A stretch of DNA of 17,769 bases from a virus (lineage: Duplodnaviria > Heunggongvirae > Uroviricota > Caudoviricetes). Both the position numbers and the translations under genes were made by a program. Within the stretch, counting starts at the first letter, position 1. The number at the start of each line of letters is the position of its first letter. The notes beneath the pieces were generated by a model that was given only the letters and a program-made list of their open reading frames with translations, did not search any database and was not told the origin of the DNA. The stretch lies in IMG/VR virus record IMGVR_UViG_2571042372_000007; one strand, given 5' to 3'. Of this stretch, positions 1,611 through 11,212 are shown in pieces.

Positions 1611-2825
1611 GTGAAACTCAATGCCCGTCAAATAGACACTGCCAAGCCAAAAGAGAAGGCTTACAAGCTGGCTGATGGTGGTGGTCTGTATCTCTTGGTA
1701 AAACCTAGTGGAGGAAAATATTGGCGCTTCAAGTATCGTGTAGCTGGTAAAGAGAAGCTGTTAGCACTAGGTGTGTATCCTGAAGTTACCTTGGCTGATG
1801 CTCGTGCAAAACGTGAAGAAGCTAAAAGGGGTATCGCTGGGGGTATCGATCCGATGGAAGCGAAACGAGAGGAAAAGATTGCCCGGGAAACGCAGTTAAA
1901 CAACACCTTCAAAGATATTGCCCTTGAGTGGCACAGCAGCAAATTAAAAAAATGGTCTGCTGGTTATGCTTCAGACATCCTCGAAGCCTTCAACAAAGAT
2001 GTGTTCCCTTACATTGGCAAAAAACCAATCGCCGAAATCAAACCACTTGAACTGCTGAATGTGCTGCGGCGCATCGAGGGGCGCGGTGCTACCGAAAAAG
2101 CCAAAAAAGTGAGGCAGCGATGTGGGGAAGTTTTCCGCTATGCAATTGTCACTGGACGTGCTGAGTATAACCCTGCACCGGATCTCACCAGCGCGATGCA
2201 AGGTCATGAATCTAATCATTATCCTTTCCTCACAGCCAAAGAATTACCTGATTTTTTCAAGGCATTGTCCAGTTACTCAGGAAGTGCATTGGTTGTTATG
2301 GCGGCTCGTTTACTGATTATCACCGGTTTGCGGACTGGCGAACTGCGCGGTGCATTATGGGATGAAATCGATCTCAACAAGGCTATCTGGGAGATACCTG
2401 CTTCACGGATGAAAATGCGTCGCCCTCATGTAGTGCCTTTGTCTGAGCAGGCTCTTTCGCTTATTGGGCAGATTAAAGAACTAACTGGCAATTATCCGCT
2501 TATGTTTCCCGGCCGTAATGATCCAAGGAAAACAATGAGCGAGGCTAGCATAAACCAAGTATTTAAACGCATCGGCTATAACGGAAAGGTTACTGGTCAT
2601 GGCTTCCGGCACACTATGAGCACCATTTTGCATGAGCAGGGCTATAACACCGCGTGGATAGAGACACAGCTTGCGCACGTCGATAAAAACTCAATTCGTG
2701 GCACATACAACCATGCGCAATATCTGGATGGGCGGCGGGAAATGCTTCAGTGGTACGCTGATTATATGGATTCGCTCGAGCATGGCGGAAATGTGGTGCA
2801 TGGTGAGTTCGGAAAATGCGGGTGA
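1611..2825 (+). CDS. int: P4-family tyrosine integrase (site-specific recombinase), GTG start
   Basis: 404-aa ORF; N-terminus MKLNARQIDTAKPKEKAYKLADGGGLYLLVKPSGGKYWRFKYR is the typical P4-integrase arm-binding region; C-terminal catalytic region with HGFRHT and a downstream conserved Tyr; directly adjacent to a tRNA gene. Confidence 0.9.
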   Translation: MKLNARQIDTAKPKEKAYKLADGGGLYLLVKPSGGKYWRFKYRVAGKEKLLALGVYPEVTLADARAKREEAKRGIAGGIDPMEAKREEKIARETQLNNTFKDIALEWHSSKLKKWSAGYASDILEAFNKDVFPYIGKKPIAEIKPLELLNVLRRIEGRGATEKAKKVRQRCGEVFRYAIVTGRAEYNPAPDLTSAMQGHESNHYPFLTAKELPDFFKALSSYSGSALVVMAARLLIITGLRTGELRGALWDEIDLNKAIWEIPASRMKMRRPHVVPLSEQALSLIGQIKELTGNYPLMFPGRNDPRKTMSEASINQVFKRIGYNGKVTGHGFRHTMSTILHEQGYNTAWIETQLAHVDKNSIRGTYNHAQYLDGRREMLQWYADYMDSLEHGGNVVHGEFGKCG

Positions 2826-2953
2826 CTGGTTGAGTATACAGTAGTAGACTTTGAGCGACGAAAGAAAAGGCTGTGTCTAGGGGCGCTCCCGAAAATCCGT
2901 ACACCTCGACGGACTGGTACAGCCACTACAGTAGAGGACGCTGAGGTGTGCGT

Positions 2954-3751
2954 ATGATTGATATTCATGCCGAATTAAACGAATACAAAAAAGATTTTAT
3001 TTCTTTACGTGAATTTCTTGAGATCGTGCTTAAGGTCGCTGGTGATGATTATGATGTTTCAGATGTCATAACTTGGATACTCAGGAGAATAAGCGGAGAA
3101 CATATCCGCCTGTACACAGTAAATGAATTTAAGCTGTTGGAATCTTTTTGTAACCCGTATCGGGATGAATTTGATAATGATGTTCTTTATAGAAATCTGA
3201 ATGCGGTTCGGAAACGTGGTTGTTTACCTGGTGAGAGGGATGAAAATGGTTTTCTGGTGTCCGGTTATTGGGAAGATCCCGAATTTGAGAACATTGGATT
3301 TATAAGGGGTGAAATTTTCGCAATTTTTCCCGATGTCCTTGACGCGTTAACGAAGCTGGAAGGCGCTAACTCTTCTGAAAATGACGAGGCACAAGGACGC
3401 GATATTGAAAAGAAAGAGTTGCGTACAGAGGATGATTTATTATCCCAAATCGCAATGCTGGAAAAAGAAAACGCAGAGTTAAGGGCAAGGATAGAGCAGT
3501 TAGAGCAAGAGCGCCCGATACACTTATATAAATACTGGGATAAAGACCCATTAGCTAAGGCTATTGAGATTAGAAACAGAGAGTGGGCCAATTACGATCC
3601 AGAAAATGATTTTGCCACCAGGGGAAATCAAGAAGCGATAACCAGGGAGCTTAAGCAGTGGGGGGCAAGTAATGCACTTGCAACGCTCATAGAGAGGACT
3701 GCCTGCCCTATTAACCGAGACAACAGTCAAAAGAACGCAAAGCCGGATTAA
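2954..3751 (+). CDS. Hypothetical protein, 265 aa, AT-rich, predicted coiled-coil segment; integrase-proximal cargo
   Basis: ORF with SD GAGGTG (2943-2948) 5 nt before ATG 2954 (the track's 2948 start is a GTG two codons upstream). Contains heptad-like IAMLEKENAELRARIEQLEQE. No family recognised. Confidence 0.6.
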   Translation: MIDIHAELNEYKKDFISLREFLEIVLKVAGDDYDVSDVITWILRRISGEHIRLYTVNEFKLLESFCNPYRDEFDNDVLYRNLNAVRKRGCLPGERDENGFLVSGYWEDPEFENIGFIRGEIFAIFPDVLDALTKLEGANSSENDEAQGRDIEKKELRTEDDLLSQIAMLEKENAELRARIEQLEQERPIHLYKYWDKDPLAKAIEIRNREWANYDPENDFATRGNQEAITRELKQWGASNALATLIERTACPINRDNSQKNAKPD

Positions 3752-3765
3752 CGCACCATACCGCA

Positions 3766-3877
3766 TACCCTGAGGGTGATTTACTGTTACCCTGAGGGTA
3801 TTTTTTTATCTTCCCCGTCAATTTTACCATCACCCTTAGGGTAGATTTCCTTCCGGTAACCATTAGGCCTGAGGGTA
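3766..3877. promoter_or_regulatory. Array of four CCT(G/T)AGGGT palindromic sites upstream of alpA
   Basis: TACCCTGAGGGT (3766-3777), TACCCTGAGGGTA (3788-3800), ACCCTTAGGGTA (3832-3843), CCTGAGGGTA (3868-3877); each a dyad-symmetric candidate operator. Confidence 0.5.
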
Positions 3878-3945
3878 TGAAAATATTCGTTATTTCTGTG
3901 CCATGATTACCTCGTCAAATTGAGTAGACGTTATGAGGTAAATAT

Positions 3946-4143
3946 ATGTCAAATACGCTTATTCGTTTAACAGAAGTTCAGCGTAGAACTGGATATAGCA
4001 AGGCATGGATTTATCGCCTTATGGGGCAAGGTAAATTTCCTGCATCAGTTAAAATTGGCTCGCGAGCTATTGCTTTCGTTGAGAGTGAAATTGACGAGTG
4101 GATTAATCAGCGTATTGCGGAATCACGCGGAACAGCTACCTGA
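3946..4143 (+). CDS. alpA: AlpA-family transcriptional regulator (phage excisionase/activator-like HTH)
   Basis: 65-aa protein LIRLTEVQRRTGYSKAWIYRLMGQGKFPASVKIGSRAIAFVESEIDEWINQR matches the AlpA/Phage_AlpA pattern (HTH, then GxR...W.ESEIDEWI). Confidence 0.85.
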   Translation: MSNTLIRLTEVQRRTGYSKAWIYRLMGQGKFPASVKIGSRAIAFVESEIDEWINQRIAESRGTAT

Positions 4144-4220
4144 TTAAATGGCTACGGGGCTATTGCCCCCAGCTATCCACCAGCAAATAAAAGTAACTTA
4201 ATTCGATAGCAGGAGTTTTT

Positions 4221-5021
4221 ATGAAATTTCCAAAAACGCCCGTACAGGGGCGGGGCTTCGTTCGGCCTGAAAACCAGAATCTGCAAAATTTCGGCGAAAT
4301 TATCCCGATTATTTCCGGCGTTATTGGCGGGAGTGAAACCACTATTGTTAGCGCCAGAGCGTTACATAAGGCGTTAGGTGTAGGGCGCGTTTTCCGTTCG
4401 TGGATCAAGGGGCGCATTGAAGAATATGGGTTCACGGAAGGCGTGGATTATGAGGTTGTTGAATATTTGAGCCGACCCGATCCGGTGAGCGCAAAATCTC
4501 GCCAGCAAACCGCTCTTGAGTACATCATCACAGTGAACATGGCGAAAGAACTGGCGATGGTCGAACGTACCGAACAGGGCCGCGCCGTTCGCCAGTACTT
4601 TATCAAATGCGAGGAGGAGCTACACAAGGTTGCGCCTGTTCGTTCCGCAGCGTTACGCCGGGAACTGAAAGCCCGTATCACAGTTGCCAGCTACTTTAAG
4701 CCAATGTGTGCCGCGCTGGAGGCGTACCGGGCTGAACTGGGTAAAAACACACTCCAGCACCACTACACCACGGAAGCGAACATGCTGGCGCGTATCGTGC
4801 TGGGTGGCATGACTGCAAAACAGTGGGCACTGGCGAACGGCATTACAGGCGAACCACGCGACCACATGAGCACGTTGCAGCTTGAGCACCTTTCTTACCT
4901 TGAGCAGAGCAATATCACGCTGATTGAGTTAGGCCAGGACTACCACCAGCGGAAGGCTGAATTAATTCGTCTTTCGCAGCGTTGGTTAGCCCGTCGTATG
5001 GAGGAAAACAGCCATGTGTAA
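4221..5021 (+). CDS. Phage antirepressor-family protein (ORF6N/Ant-like N-terminal domain)
   Basis: SD CAGGAG before ATG; motif SARALHKALGVGRVFRSWIKGRIEEYGFTEGVDYEV resembles the antirepressor N-terminal domain signature (LH..LGV...F..WI..RI..YGF.EG.DY). Assigned from memory of the family pattern. Confidence 0.55.
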   Translation: MKFPKTPVQGRGFVRPENQNLQNFGEIIPIISGVIGGSETTIVSARALHKALGVGRVFRSWIKGRIEEYGFTEGVDYEVVEYLSRPDPVSAKSRQQTALEYIITVNMAKELAMVERTEQGRAVRQYFIKCEEELHKVAPVRSAALRRELKARITVASYFKPMCAALEAYRAELGKNTLQHHYTTEANMLARIVLGGMTAKQWALANGITGEPRDHMSTLQLEHLSYLEQSNITLIELGQDYHQRKAELIRLSQRWLARRMEENSHV

Positions 5022-5480
5022 CGCTCTGACCGTTACAAAAAGAGAAAGCGCCCCGTTGCCGGAGCGCCTTTGTGAACGAATAGCCTACTGCGCCATATTG
5101 CTTACTGTCTACGAGGCAGATTATAGCGTTGTGGTCGCACAGAGTGAAGGCGCTGATCACCGTTACTACAGCACGCCAGAAATGCAGAATATTTTGCTGC
5201 AAAATGTCGTTGGTCACACTGTCCGGAAAGCAAAAAATTTTGCTGGTGGCGCGACTGATGCGATTTTGTCAGGTCGCCAGGTGCTGATCAATCTGATGTC
5301 TGATTTCGTTCTGGATAAAACAAAGGCGACCGCAGAGGGCCGCCAGTGGGAAAGCTACATACTTGAACGCATCGCCAACAATGCCAGATTTGCGGCTGGT
5401 GGGCAATGTGTCAGCTTTGCACCAATGACTCTATGTTTAACTGAGGGTCATTATGGTGAATATGCTGGCTTGCTGGTGGG
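5014..5480 (+). other. ORF translationally coupled to the antirepressor gene (ATGTGTAA overlap); 3' end undefined
   Basis: Starts MCNALTVTKRES at the same CATGTGTAA junction type seen at 6593, which argues the start is real. The frame has no stop until 6600 and turns Cys/Ser-rich and junk-like from about residue 155. End coordinate is approximate. Confidence 0.3.
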
Positions 5481-5738
5481 CTATTCCTGCTCTTTAACAT
5501 TGCCATGCCGCGATGTTTTCCAGGTATGCGACCCCATTTTTGTGTGCCTGTACTCTTTAAGGAATTTCTCAAGGACAAACGCACAGGGCGCGAATCTGTC
5601 TGACTCATGCTCGTACGCTATCTTTCTGCGCTGTCTTTTCCGTGCCGGTGATGGTGTATTGGTTGATTCTTTGTTGGTCATGGCGCTGCCCTGTAAAATA
5701 ATGCACCGTAGTTCCTCACACCACGGCACCTATAGTGG

Positions 5739-6044
5739 TTATTCCTGCTCTTTAGCTTTGCGCCGCTGGAGTTCTTCACGCGCGACGGTGACGAGTTGCC
5801 CGATTTCCTCGGCAGCTTTGACTCCGATTTTTTCCACCTGCGCTAGGGCATCGAGCGAAGAAACCAGGGGATTTTCTCCGCTTCCTTCTGCCTGGCGGCG
5901 GGCGATTTCACCGCGAACGGCTGTAATCACGAAAGCGGCTATTGTTTCCCCTTCCGTTTTCGAATTTTCCATTTCCTCGATTACATCATGGGGGAAGCGG
6001 ATATTTTTCATTTGCGATCTGCTGTTGATGTTTCCTGTTGCCAT
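5739..6044 (-). CDS. Small protein, possible ribbon-helix-helix-type regulator, divergent from the replication operon
   Basis: 101-aa minus-strand ORF MATGNINSRSQMKNIRFPHDVIEEMENSKTEGETIAAFVITAVRGEIARRQ; an N-terminal beta-strand-like segment followed by helices looks RHH-like. Weak SD; start may instead be the internal MKNIRF. Confidence 0.45.
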   Translation of the reverse strand: MATGNINSRSQMKNIRFPHDVIEEMENSKTEGETIAAFVITAVRGEIARRQAEGSGENPLVSSLDALAQVEKIGVKAAEEIGQLVTVAREELQRRKAKEQE

Positions 6045-6135
6045 CAGAATGTCCGGTTATTTTGAGGTGTGTACACATTACACCAAAAGGTGTGTTGATA
6101 AAACACTTGACACTGTAGCACACTTAAATTTAATT

Positions 6136-6168
6136 TGTATATACACCAATTGTTGTGGTGTATATACA
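6136..6168. promoter_or_regulatory. 13-bp perfect inverted repeat (TGTATATACACCA N7 TGGTGTATATACA) in the divergent intergenic region
   Basis: Arms at 6136-6148 and 6156-6168 are exact reverse complements; located between the minus-strand gene (ends 6044) and the plus-strand operon start (6235). Additional GTGT/ACAC dyads at 6065-6090. Confidence 0.6.
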
Positions 6169-6234
6169 GCAACGCCCCGCAGTGGTGGCACACATGCAGG
6201 GCGTCTAACCAAACCGTTAAACGAGGTAACGATT

Positions 6235-6600
6235 ATGGCTGGAACACAGCATACCCAAACTCACCCTAAATTTATATACACCTTCCTGGCGGTGCACCGT
6301 GATTGCATTGCTGACGGTAAAAACACTGTACACGTAGCCGCCGATACGCTGGTTGATGCCTGCGAGATGCTCAATGACATGGGCTATATCTCGGCAACAT
6401 GGAAAGGGCGCGAAGAAAACACGCTGTTTATTCAGAAATGCGAAAACAATTTTATCTGGCGTTTTATCGCCCTGAGTACGGCACAACCGCGCGTGATTCA
6501 CATCGAGGCCACCAGCGAACAGGAAGCACGCCAGCAATCTCCTGATGGCTGCGTGATGGTATTCGCTGCCCGTATTCGCCAGGAGGTGGAGCATGTGTAA
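6235..6600 (+). CDS. Hypothetical protein, 121 aa (first gene of the replication operon)
   Basis: ATG 6235 preceded by SD-like GAGGTAACG; the protein-like tail of the 528-aa track ORF (MAGTQHTQTHPKFIYTFLAVHRDC...); stop overlaps the next gene start (ATGTGTAA). Confidence 0.55.
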   Translation: MAGTQHTQTHPKFIYTFLAVHRDCIADGKNTVHVAADTLVDACEMLNDMGYISATWKGREENTLFIQKCENNFIWRFIALSTAQPRVIHIEATSEQEARQQSPDGCVMVFAARIRQEVEHV

Positions 6601-6817
6601 TGCAACATGGCCTGATGCAGCGGTAGACGCTATCAAAACGCTGATGGATTCACTTATTGAGATTTCTGCTATCGCTGGTGTGGCGCATAAACACGCAGCC
6701 AGAGAATCAGAATGCATCTCCCATTATTTAGCATTTGTGCAGCTAAAAGCCGATCAGGCACTGGATAAGGCCGGAAAAATTATCATGGCTGATGTGCAGG
6801 AGGTGCACCATGCATAA
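6593..6817 (+). CDS. Hypothetical protein, 74 aa
   Basis: Start coupled to the upstream stop; ends ...QEVHHA with stop overlapping the next start (CCATGCATAA). Confidence 0.5.
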   Translation: MCNATWPDAAVDAIKTLMDSLIEISAIAGVAHKHAARESECISHYLAFVQLKADQALDKAGKIIMADVQEVHHA

Positions 6818-7175
6818 CCTGTCAATTTCTGACCTTAACAGCATTCAGTTTGACGAGAAATTTACCGGGCAGTTGCTGGTCAATGTGGAGAACGGGCGCA
6901 TAGTGCGTAATTACCACCTGCCGGATGGTGCAATTGCCGGAAGCGTTGAAGCATTGCTGGAGCTGGCGGAACGTGCGCGACTGATTAAGCCGTCAACGTG
7001 CCATCACGATGATGATCTGCATTTTACCGGGTGTATGGTGAGTCACTACGAAAACGGCGTTGAAGTATCCTGCGAACGTCTGCGTGATGATTGCTGTTTC
7101 GGCACACTGCCGGAATTTATCGAATTGCTGACCAGTTGCGGTTATCAGGTCATTCAGGGGGGTAAACATGCGTGA
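6810..7175 (+). CDS. Hypothetical protein, 121 aa, paralogue of the 7394..7594 product
   Basis: Preferred start ATG 6810 (MHNLSISDL) overlapping the upstream stop, rather than the track's 6792; shares an FTG(Q/R)(L/V)LV...G motif with the 66-aa protein at 7394. Confidence 0.5.
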   Translation: MHNLSISDLNSIQFDEKFTGQLLVNVENGRIVRNYHLPDGAIAGSVEALLELAERARLIKPSTCHHDDDLHFTGCMVSHYENGVEVSCERLRDDCCFGTLPEFIELLTSCGYQVIQGGKHA

Positions 7176-7401
7176 TGATCGTTTTAATTCCCTGAAACAG
7201 GAGTTTGATGGCGCACCGGAAGATACATCGGGCGCATTGTTGAGCATTGCTGACATGATGAAAGCTGCATATTTTCTTATCAATACCAGTGGCTACAAGT
7301 CAGAGGGTGAAATGATTCTTAGTATTGCGTCGGACTATGCTGAATATGTGGCAGAGACGCGTTACAGAAGAAAATCTCTGGAGGATGTAAGCCATGCATA
7401 A
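7168..7401 (+). CDS. Hypothetical protein, 77 aa
   Basis: ATG overlaps upstream stop (ATGCGTGA); ends ...EDVSHA with stop overlapping the next start (CCATGCATAA), mirroring the 6593..6817 gene. Confidence 0.5.
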   Translation: MRDDRFNSLKQEFDGAPEDTSGALLSIADMMKAAYFLINTSGYKSEGEMILSIASDYAEYVAETRYRRKSLEDVSHA

Positions 7402-9998: not shown

Positions 9999-10325
9999 AT
10001 GACTAAAAATACTCGTTTTTCCCCCGAAGTCCGTCAACGGGCAGTCCGTATGGTTCTGGAAAGTCAGAGCGAATATGACTCACAATGGGCGACAATTTGT
10101 TCCATTGCTCCAAAGATTGGCTGTACGCCGGAGACTCTGCGTGTCTGGGTTCGCCAGCATGAGCGGGATACCGGGGGCGGTGATGGAGGGCTCACCACCG
10201 CTGAACGTCAGCGTCTGAAAGAGCTGGAACGTGAAAATCGTGAACTGCGCCGCAGTAACGATATCCTTCGCCAGGCTTCCGCTTATTTTGCGAAGGCGGA
10301 GTTCGACCGCCTCTGGAAAAAATGA
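9999..10325 (+). CDS. IS3-family transposase OrfA (HTH and leucine-zipper region)
   Basis: 108 aa, [55 protein letters not shown]...[30 protein letters not shown]. Confidence 0.85.
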
Positions 10326-11212
10326 TGCCACTGCTGGATAAGCTGCGTGAGCAGTACGGGGTCGGACCGCTATGCAGCGAACTGCATATTGCCCCGTCAA
10401 CGTATTACCACTGTCAGCAACAGCGACATCATCCGGATAAACGCAGTGCCCGTGCGCAGCGCGATGACTGGCTGAAGAAAGAGATACAGCGCGTATACGA
10501 TGAAAATCACAAGGTATACGGTGTGCGTAAAGTCTGGCGTCAGTTGTTACGGGAAGGTATCAGAGTGGCCAGATGCACTGTGGCACGTCTCATGGCGGTT
10601 ATGGGACTTGCCGGTGTTCTCCGGGGTAAAAAGGTCCGTACGACCATCAGCCGGAAAGCCGTTGCCGCAGGCGACCGCGTAAACCGTCAGTTCGTGGCAG
10701 AACGACCTGACCAGCTGTGGGTGGCTGATTTTACTTACGTCAGCACATGGCGGGGCTTCGTCTATGTGGCGTTCATCATTGATGTGTTTGCCGGATACAT
10801 CGTGGGGTGGCGGGTCTCATCGTCCATGGAAACGACATTCGTGCTGGATGCACTGGAGCAGGCGTTATGGGCCCGTCGACCGTCCGGCACGGTCCATCAC
10901 AGTGATAAAGGTTCTCAGTATGTATCGCTGGCCTACACACAGCGGCTTAAGGAAGCCGGATTACTGGCATCAACAGGAAGTACAGGCGACTCGTATGACA
11001 ACGCGATGGCGGAGAGCATCAATGGTCTTTACAAAGCGGAGGTAATACACCGTAAGAGCTGGAAAAACCGTGCAGAAGTGGAACTGGCCACACTCACGTG
11101 GGTGGACTGGTATAACAATCGACGATTGCTGGAAAGGCTGGGCCATACTCCTCCGGCAGAAGCAGAAAAAGCTTATTATGCTTCCATCGGAAACGATGAT
11201 CTGGCAGCCTGA
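10322..11212 (+). CDS. IS3-family transposase OrfB (DDE catalytic domain), expressed as OrfAB by -1 frameshift
   Basis: 296 aa; overlaps orfA by ATGA; DDE-type integrase core (WVADFTYV..., [10 protein letters not shown]..., YDNAMAES...) characteristic of IS3 transposases. Confidence 0.85.

Follow-up and report, generated by a model that had tools for sequence, protein, structure and literature searches.

The gene eta belongs to the so-called Bro network of phage-inducible chromosomal islands (PICIs). According to PMC10111431 (citing Forti et al., 1999, J Bacteriol 181:5225), it contains a constitutive internal promoter. Kil is a truncated form of eta, the full-length form being translated from the upstream late promoter only. 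The same source has eta coupled to a homologue of alpA: its translation prevents (Rho-dependent) termination, and the downstream genes are transcribed. It further gives the order of Gram-negative PICIs and P4-like elements as int, alpA, Bro zone, replication and late genes. We consider here a stretch of 17,769 nucleotides (IMG/VR record IMGVR_UViG_2571042372_000007), hereafter 'the window', with positions counted from its first letter. It holds an island of Escherichia coli where a plus-strand frame of 528 codons (5014..6600) runs without a stop, antisense through two minus-strand open reading frames (ORFs) and across a divergent promoter region. We propose that this frame is the counterpart of P4 eta with a nested kil, a leader ORF selected for its translation, and that a short repeat found within it is a leftover of recombination. 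We would give this reading about two chances in three.

Phages P1 and P7 offer another setting for an Icd-like ORF. Their immI operon is arranged c4-icd-ant, and its Icd is the founding member that gave the family its name. There, transcription goes on or stops according to whether a short ORF is translated, and control is exerted by the C4 antisense RNA. In the Gifsy-1 system IsrK/orf45/anrP, downstream prophage regulators depend for their expression on an ORF upstream being translated, and IsrK is a structural homologue of P4 seqA (PMC4825925). Bro-network genes are described in the accessible parts of PMC10111431 and PMC6092414, as are C4 and isrK RNAs in some islands; those parts hold no description of an antisense YlcI cassette placed in such a frame, or of openness without sequence conservation.

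Openness and phase of the long frame

The features on which the argument turns are the following (SD, Shine-Dalgarno sequence).

5014..6600, plus strand: long stop-free, eta-like frame, 528 codons, ATG start (ORF listing); open, but with amino acids unconserved upstream of 6235
5000..5021, plus strand: predicted coupling junction ATGTGTAA, with SD GGAGG at 5000-5004, 9 nt, ATG at 5014 and the antA stop TAA at 5019-5021 (read in the sequence)
4221..5021, plus strand: gene of the antA/antB antirepressor family (Bro network), its stop overlapping the start of the long frame (Pfam AntA, E 2.5e-23)
5481..5681, minus strand: ORF of 66 aa, phrog_21027, with a basic RKRQRRK motif (RefSeq, PHROG, relatives)
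5739..6044, minus strand: YlcI/YnfO-family gene, 101 aa, antisense within the long frame, the third codon positions of the two falling together; candidate repressor that would bind the operator (NF041551, E 8.2e-18)
6045..6234, unstranded: divergent promoter/operator region and kil leader, 63 codons open (0 in-frame stops vs 6 and 4 in the other frames)
6235..6600, plus strand: nested Kil/Icd-like ORF, 121 aa, SD GAGG at 6223-6226, Icd domain at aa 480-523 of the long frame (NF033153, E 2.4e-21)

ORF listing and translation agree with the initial annotation of this DNA on the main fact: from 5014 onwards the frame has no internal stop. Its openness already begins at 4990, and the remaining two plus-strand frames over the same stretch have 24 and 29 stops. 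Where the frame shares no minus-strand gene and lies outside the Icd-like ORF (5022-5480, 5682-5738 and 6045-6234; 233 codons), dinucleotide shuffling predicts about 10.9 stops and there are none (P ~2e-5). Nearly all related loci, and P4 between vis and eta, have a strong SD and a start that either overlaps the stop of the gene upstream or abuts it. The overlap may be ATGA, GTGA or ATGnnTAA, or it may give way to an 11-nt gap after alpA. By its sequence, the long frame would be coupled in translation to the gene ahead of it in the vis/alpA operon. We also observed that a junction of the form CATGTGTAA(C/T)GC, with the next ATG overlapping the previous TAA, is present at both ends of the frame (5013-5024 and 6592-6603).

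The same openness recurs in relatives (numbered with an L below). Among E. coli islands, the frame ending at the Icd-like stop is open over 357-536 codons in 10 of 12, the other plus frames having 17-31 stops. When one genome per species was scanned with the Kil/Icd alignment, 16 loci came out, 15 of them usable, and in 10 of these 15 the frame is open over 284-695 codons; Klebsiella, Enterobacter, Intestinirhabdus, Superficieibacter and Rahnella are among the open ones. In IMG/VR, the 80 best matches to the window's type of Kil collapse to 23 distinct upstream versions, of which 21 are open over at least 266 codons, and every version that has a YlcI homologue (17/17) has it within the frame. 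Wherever the frame encloses YlcI, this gene keeps one and the same phase with respect to kil, third codon positions coinciding. Loci counted as closed still have a long plus frame in another phase, of 219 codons in L009 and L015, 292 in L016 and 267 in L017; that of L007 (255 codons) ends 5 nt ahead of the kil ATG. In Shigella flexneri (L021, 2650-3662), a non-homologous, clearly ribbon-helix-helix (RHH)-like minus-strand gene of 59 aa (3153-3332) occupies the slot of YlcI, and there a plus frame of 267 codons, antisense over this gene, ends 9 nt before the kil ATG.

The region between YlcI and kil comes in at least 12 versions, with promoter and operator parts that are 58% identical at the median. 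All are stop-free in the frame, and their other frames have 2-10 stops. Their lengths – 178, 187, 190, 193, 196, 199 and 208 nt – are each equal to 1 modulo 3. Further indels outside the minus-strand genes, of 48 and 42 nt (90 nt combined), are multiples of 3, and so is the 15-nt difference in length that separates the window from L008 over 5547-6250. Locus by locus, the intergenic region is open in 0.5-4.5% of dinucleotide shuffles (P 0.005-0.045; 0.035-0.04 for the window), probabilities that are not independent, since the loci are related. Taken together, the sequence comparisons indicate that selection keeps the long frame open and in phase, not its amino-acid sequence. Of a long protein conserved across the whole stretch, which the initial annotation had named as the finding that would speak against it, the open frame is conserved and the amino-acid sequence is not. 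The middle of the frame had also been called junk-like; related islands keep it open, so that it is neither junk nor part of a broken gene.

How might this work? On the alpA/antA transcript, ribosomes would load at the strong SD and ATG overlapping the antA stop, read stop-free over the tail of the minus-strand operon, proceed antisense through the 66-aa ORF and the YlcI/YnfO gene, then cross the divergent promoter/operator region and enter the Icd-like (Kil) ORF. On transcripts from the internal promoter, Kil alone would also be translated, from its own SD. Translation would protect read-through from the helper-activated alpA promoter against Rho until kil and the primase operon, and the CI-RNA immunity module of P4 would be replaced by the divergently transcribed YlcI protein. 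By analogy with P4, we infer that translation as such would be the function of the long frame, shielding read-through of the alpA operon from Rho.

The promoter region, YlcI and the Kil-like end

Three further features lie between YlcI and kil.

6107..6134, plus strand: candidate early promoter, analogue of PLE, TTGACA-16 nt-TTTAAT (read by eye)
6136..6168, unstranded: operator palindrome TGTATATACACCA-N7-TGGTGTATATACA at the predicted transcription start, with related copies at 6065-6106 (repeat analysis and comparison of versions)
6172..6211, plus strand: conserved kil-leader hairpin (6172-6204), then CTAACCA (fold; CG/GC swaps at two stem pairs across 15 loci)

An operator-bearing, divergent intergenic region had been proposed here, and the palindrome together with version-specific repeats confirms it. 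The divergent promoters were both read by eye, neither being called by the consensus scan; the TTGAC motif of the candidate early promoter is conserved in all versions. A 9-mer peculiar to each intergenic version is present there in 3-5 copies, at a spacing of 22-23 bp (6045-6170 in the window). Across species (loci L003-L029), these operator 9-mers co-vary with residues 8-18 of YlcI (window 5994-6023). Thus, QISIRIP pairs with TGTGATTCA in three E. coli loci and one Klebsiella locus, and QS(L/V)TARI with TGTAAGAC in E. coli and Superficieibacter. Because of this co-variation, YlcI is probably an operator-binding repressor of the kil/primase promoter, which would bind the version-specific repeats.

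The minus-strand gene that the initial annotation had thought probable at 5739..6044 is safely assigned to its family (NF041551, YlcI_YnfO_N, 64 bits vs a cutoff of 30; phrog_6522, E 9e-49). As to fold, Pfam yields sub-threshold matches of RHH type only, PSK_trans_fac in 5 of 15 members, and also Arc, HicB_lk and NikA. A profile search of the PDB with YlcI found nothing, and a single-sequence AlphaFold model (pLDDT 60) was too poor for a fold search. The neighbouring small ORF, which accompanies YlcI within the frame in E. coli, has a conserved core, ES(E/D)RFAPC.F.LE.FLKE, and a variable tail. It had been read as 82 aa long, from a GTG at 5729. Its KEQE ending stands, while its start is more likely the ATG at 5681 (66 aa, 5481..5681, MTNKEST...), because this ATG is conserved in relatives and annotated in RefSeq.

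Between alpA/Bro and kil, C4 (CI RNA) with isrK (seqA) on the one hand and the YlcI gene on the other share the same position, and in the loci examined they are mutually exclusive. In P4 (L013, 8420-8507 and 8615-8692), L009 (2665-2853) and L015 (3286-3474), the C4/isrK RNAs are present and YlcI is absent; L009 and L015 have their long frame and kil in different phases. The Rfam search that recovers C4 and isrK in these three elements found neither of them, nor any other RNA, in the corresponding region of the window (gathering score; E 5 over 3800-7300), and because of this we rejected a CI RNA mechanism of P4 type for the island of the window. The kil-leader hairpin has no Rfam match either. 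It is followed by a nearly invariant YCTNACCA, and occurs both in islands whose long frame is in phase with kil and in those where it is not.

The Icd-like ORF itself has 121 aa rather than some 65, a degenerate second Kil core (FIYTFLAV...VHVAADTLVDA) preceding the canonical one, FIWRFIAL...IHIEATSEQEA (6235-6450). The same duplicated-core form is found in L002-L004, L008 and L014.

One may go further. In many PICI-type satellites of enterobacteria, read-through of the alpA operon would have to be translated antisense through the very repressor, YlcI, and across the operators that go with it. This would make the frame a switch: convergent transcription, protected by ribosomes, would silence YlcI and also take polymerase past Rho and on to the replication genes, and YlcI would be the immunity repressor of Gram-negative PICIs, standing where P4 has its CI RNA. 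This is a tentative extension, possible rather than probable. The co-variation with the operator repeats in any case makes YlcI/YnfO a testable candidate repressor of Gram-negative PICIs, for which PMC6092414 states it to be unclear whether a repressor exists.

Alternative explanations and the 15-bp repeat

The alternative that survives best, though we consider it unlikely, is that the long frame encodes a genuine multi-domain, Eta-like protein of the Bro network, forming a true antisense pair with YlcI. The frame is indeed conserved, with a coupled start and a strong SD. PGAP has annotated 'Icd-like' proteins of 470 aa in L011 and 157 aa in CFT073 (L010), and in both these islands the N-terminus of the frame keeps a Bro-N-like remnant. 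The labelling is inconsistent: RefSeq has the 470-aa 'Icd-like protein' of L011 at 2259-3671 and leaves YlcI unannotated there, the protein of CFT073 (3072-3545) overlaps YlcI, and elsewhere the 'Icd-like' proteins have 65-121 aa.

Amino-acid constraint is what a genuine protein should display, and over 5022-5408 it is missing: among four alleles, variable sites fall 4/9/3 at the three codon positions, without third-position excess, and codon columns are synonymous in 2 cases and nonsynonymous in 12. The antA protein, with variable sites distributed 5/9/26 among four alleles, is by that measure under purifying selection. Over YlcI, there are 32/23/69 variable sites at minus-strand codon positions 1/2/3, and synonymous-only columns number 38 in the minus frame vs 27 in the plus frame, which argues that it is the YlcI strand that carries protein constraint. 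As third positions coincide, codon-position counts cannot separate the strands there; the comparison rests on the asymmetry between positions 1 and 2 and on the synonymous columns, and is suggestive for YlcI, ambiguous for the small ORF. Over the latter, the plus frame shows 12 synonymous-only columns vs 11 nonsynonymous ones, so that there may be some plus-frame constraint, the constrained strand being ambiguous at this place.

The few plus-strand motifs kept between distant versions (SAPLPERL, 5070-5045; KTKAT, 5344-5325) fall on hairpins that look like terminators of the minus strand.

5045..5070, minus strand: terminator-like hairpin and T-run for minus transcripts, under the plus motif SAPLPERL (A-run and hairpin kept with a different stem in L007 and L012)
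5325..5344, minus strand: terminator-like hairpin and T-run downstream of the minus gene pair, under the plus motif KTKAT (compensatory stem changes in L005 and L010; inside the conserved block 5315-5414)

Islands of every type, the C4 type included, conserve this block of about 100 bp, which includes AACAATGCC(A/R)CATTTGCGGCTGGTGGGCAATG and whose left end holds the terminator-like hairpin. Some match to 5000-6250 is carried by 1872 E. coli genomes, the majority matching parts of that stretch only. Several observations add to the case against a genuine protein. Pfam finds no domain in the long frame or in its N-terminal part; the database proteins tolerate big in-frame deletions and form mosaics (P0003, P0013, P0028, P0034). 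At some 58% DNA identity, the translated operator region is unrelated between versions at the protein level, and in several loci the frame is out of phase with kil or ends just before it.

The initial annotation had also considered an antisense by-product. Quite improbable, in our view, is the idea that the openness is a mere by-product: antisense of two purine-rich genes poor in Tyr, His and Gln codons, completed by chance spacers and inherited by descent. It fits only the part antisense to YlcI. There, 7-79% of synonymous shuffles stay open (P 0.07-0.79), which makes this openness unremarkable by itself, and the YlcI of the window contains no Tyr. The 18-codon spacer 5682-5738, taken alone, is stop-free in 46% of shuffles, and the loci do share ancestry. 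What a by-product leaves unexplained is the lack of stops in the gene-free parts, the fact that 12 intergenic versions of seven lengths are all open and in phase, and the frame spanning a non-homologous minus gene in S. flexneri. Finally, three loci that have YlcI in another phase carry 3-10 intergenic stops in the kil frame, so that promoter sequences do not themselves exclude stops.

The repeat that lies within the frame has its own set of explanations.

5479..5503, unstranded: repeat copy 1 (core 5482-5496), an orphan of the YlcI 3' end, now giving KEQE and TAG to the small ORF (variant alignment)
5737..5761, unstranded: repeat copy 2 (core 5740-5754), the apparently functional YlcI 3' end ...RRKAKEQE-TAA (variant alignment)

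It had been described as a 17-bp direct repeat at about 5482 and 5742, 260 bp apart. The repeat is real, with slightly different dimensions: TATTCCTGCTCTTTA is exact over 15 nt, at 5482-5496 and 5740-5754, hence a spacing of 258 nt, or 86 codons, and allowing mismatches lengthens it to 25 nt, of which 22 agree (5479-5503, 5737-5761). It was correctly judged unlikely by chance (two matches in 0 of 200 shuffles, 0.01 being expected), and both copies do read KEQE-stop on the minus strand, the stop being TAG in copy 1 and TAA in copy 2.

Relatives tell where these copies come from. The end at copy 2 is conserved as protein, with synonymous variation; L002, 97% identical overall, matches the 15-mer at 12/15. 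The sequence to the left of copy 1, GCTGGCTTGCTGGTGGGC, leads in L007 directly into TATTCCTGCTCTTT-GGCCTTGCGG, the end of that island's own YlcI, and the 258 bp are absent. Type-B islands (L005, L006, L008, L010 and L011) have no copy 1, their small ORF having the tail ...LERTKSD, and the small ORF ends in KEQE only in islands of the window type. Elsewhere in E. coli, 5463-5503 sits under annotated YlcI 3' ends (matches H95-H99). The form with copy 1 is an established one: the junction stretch 5409-5560 is carried over at least 80% of its length by 116 of 5426 genomes, and rows sampled lower in the match ranking have the form that matches from 5463 onward only. From the L007 junction, the type-B tails and these YlcI ends, we conclude that copy 1 is an orphan end of YlcI, brought up against the small ORF when island variants recombined, and thus ordinary mosaic debris. 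It may stem from insertion or recombination of the small-ORF segment; alternatively, a deletion between the repeats may have given islands of L007 type. The suspicion of a small duplication or insertion was sound to the extent that the repeat marks an indel/recombination polymorphism, L007 lacking the 258 bp and other variants lacking copy 1.

It is very improbable that a small mobile insertion accounts for the repeat, as its target-site duplication or recombination site, or that the repeat is a functional binding site for a protein or RNA, even though it is exact, unlikely by chance, and bounds a segment missing in L007-type islands. Copy 2 codes for the end of YlcI, with synonymous variation among relatives; type-B islands keep the small ORF without copy 1; and genuine YlcI genes elsewhere have copy 1 and its left flank at their 3' ends. 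The 258-bp segment has no inverted repeats, either flanking it or at its ends, and what it carries is most of the small ORF, not sequence resembling a transposase or a miniature inverted-repeat transposable element.

Hardly credible, finally, is a recent stop loss or frameshift that would have fused the 5014 gene to downstream sequence, as a pseudogene or accidental fusion private to one lineage: RefSeq has no annotation in 5022-5480, and the N-terminal part (5014-5481) has homologues in just 44 small, Escherichia-only clusters of variable length, without domains, but alignment to homologues, in which the initial annotation hoped to locate an ancestral stop, revealed none, and among the relatives with a homologue of 5014, none has a stop ahead of kil. 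Across genera, most relatives have the frame open; all those bearing AntA (L002-L004, L008, L014) continue it, in islands without antA it begins right after alpA, and P4 has the same architecture.

To return to the preferred reading, an eta counterpart with nested kil that is selected for translation, several points count against it. Both the translation of 5014-6234 and any part played by Rho are ascribed by analogy with P4, and by GC skew the plus-strand RNA is without the marked excess of C over G typical of rut sites. Phage_ASH, which P4 Eta matches at E 3.8e-23, is absent from the frame of the window and from 8 other long frames, while C4 and isrK are absent from 3800-7300 at E 5 and from the whole window at gathering score. 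The candidate early promoter was not called by the consensus scan, which requires A at position 2 of the -10 box. Over the small ORF, the plus frame has 12 synonymous-only columns vs 7 for the minus frame. Closely related Escherichia islands are the only ones from which codons 1-100 (5014-5314) are known. The statistics suffer from the kinship of the loci, already mentioned, and from the IMG/VR versions having been gathered by their match to the window's own Kil.

If the eta-like reading is right, several things would fall into place. It would explain an oddity of annotation, RefSeq 'Icd-like' proteins of anything from 65 to 470 aa at this site, or else gaps of 460 bp. It would extend the logic of P4 eta/kil to islands with a different, protein-based immunity module. 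And it would provide a natural, widely conserved case of an ORF apparently selected for translation, not for its product, wholly overlapping a real gene on the opposite strand.

Comparison with P4 and other known systems

By its gene content, the element of the window is a phage satellite of E. coli of the P4-like/PICI kind, integrated at tRNA-Thr beside proA. It matches E. coli chromosomes, e.g. NZ_CP070111, at 100% identity. From left to right, proA is followed by tRNA-Thr (1369-1441), the integrase, a hypothetical gene, an AlpA-like helix-turn-helix (HTH) gene, antA and 460 bp without annotation; then come the minus-strand 66-aa ORF and YlcI/YnfO gene, the 'Icd-like' gene and small ORFs, and, at the right end, DUF4222, a D5-type primase, IS3 and a TerS-like gene. 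Pfam matches in the window are the integrase, AntA and the primase (D5_N, DUF5906, Pox_D5). All the traits expected of a Gram-negative PICI or P4-like element are there: an integrase by its tRNA site, a regulator of the AlpA family, a primase of P4/D5 type and co-oriented genes. The TerS-like gene has a weak match only (phrog_57, E 2e-6). The regulator is the first gene of the rightward operon that leads into the long frame.

3946..4143, plus strand: AlpA/Vis-like HTH regulator, first gene of the rightward operon feeding the long frame (phrog_2790 and phrog_66, 'excisionase and transcriptional regulator', E ~1.6e-11; HTH regulator in RefSeq)

Two other elements may be mentioned. Rfam recognises an int-alpA RNA motif (46.8 bits) at 2870-2937, in the space separating the integrase from the gene that follows, and the motif recurs in L014, L016, L017, L024 and L029; and an IS3-family element (~9999-11212), with a programmed-frameshift ALIL pseudoknot at 10280-10396, has inserted immediately after the primase gene.

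The zones follow one another as in the Gram-negative and helper-embedded PICIs of PMC10111431: int and alpA, Bro (here antA and the eta-like frame), primase, and TerS-like late gene. The model PICI EcCICFT073 (PMC6092414) brings a closer parallel, as CFT073 (L010) has a like frame of 428 codons with YlcI and the small ORF inside.

With P4, the resemblance is one of architecture. A tblastn search of phage genomes gave weak partial matches only and did not retrieve P4, and the comparison was made with record NC_001609, taken by accession. On the strand of its left operon, P4 has a frame of 217 codons whose ATG overlaps the stop of vis (ORF88) and whose last 65 codons are kil. P4 Kil matches NF033153 (phage_ICD_like) at E 1.6e-21; both it and the C-terminus of the window frame match phrog_1743, and the N-terminus of the window Kil, MAGTQHTQTHPKFIYTFLAVHR, aligns with that of P4 Kil. 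Common to both are a long ORF coupled upstream (here as read from the sequence), a terminal Icd-like Kil with its own start, and the primase operon downstream; the internal early promoter of P4 would have its counterpart in the candidate at 6107-6134. The window differs in having 528 codons (P4: about 199, or 217 by the open frame given above), antA between alpA and the frame, a frame that passes antisense through two minus-strand ORFs and a divergent operator region, and a Kil with an internal partial duplication (121 aa).

The immI operon of P1 and P7 likewise brings an Icd-family ORF and an antirepressor gene under common regulation; in P1 the order is icd before ant, whereas antA comes before the frame here, where C4 was not found by Rfam. 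Gifsy-1 differs in that its control is RNA-based and trans-acting (PMC4825925), and isrK has no match in the window. There remain, as a general class, the long antisense-overlapping gene pairs of enterobacteria. The likeness is that a gene of 101 codons is fully embedded, in fixed phase, in a longer open frame, an arrangement conserved across genera. What seems to set this pair apart is that its longer partner would be selected for being translatable, and not for its product.

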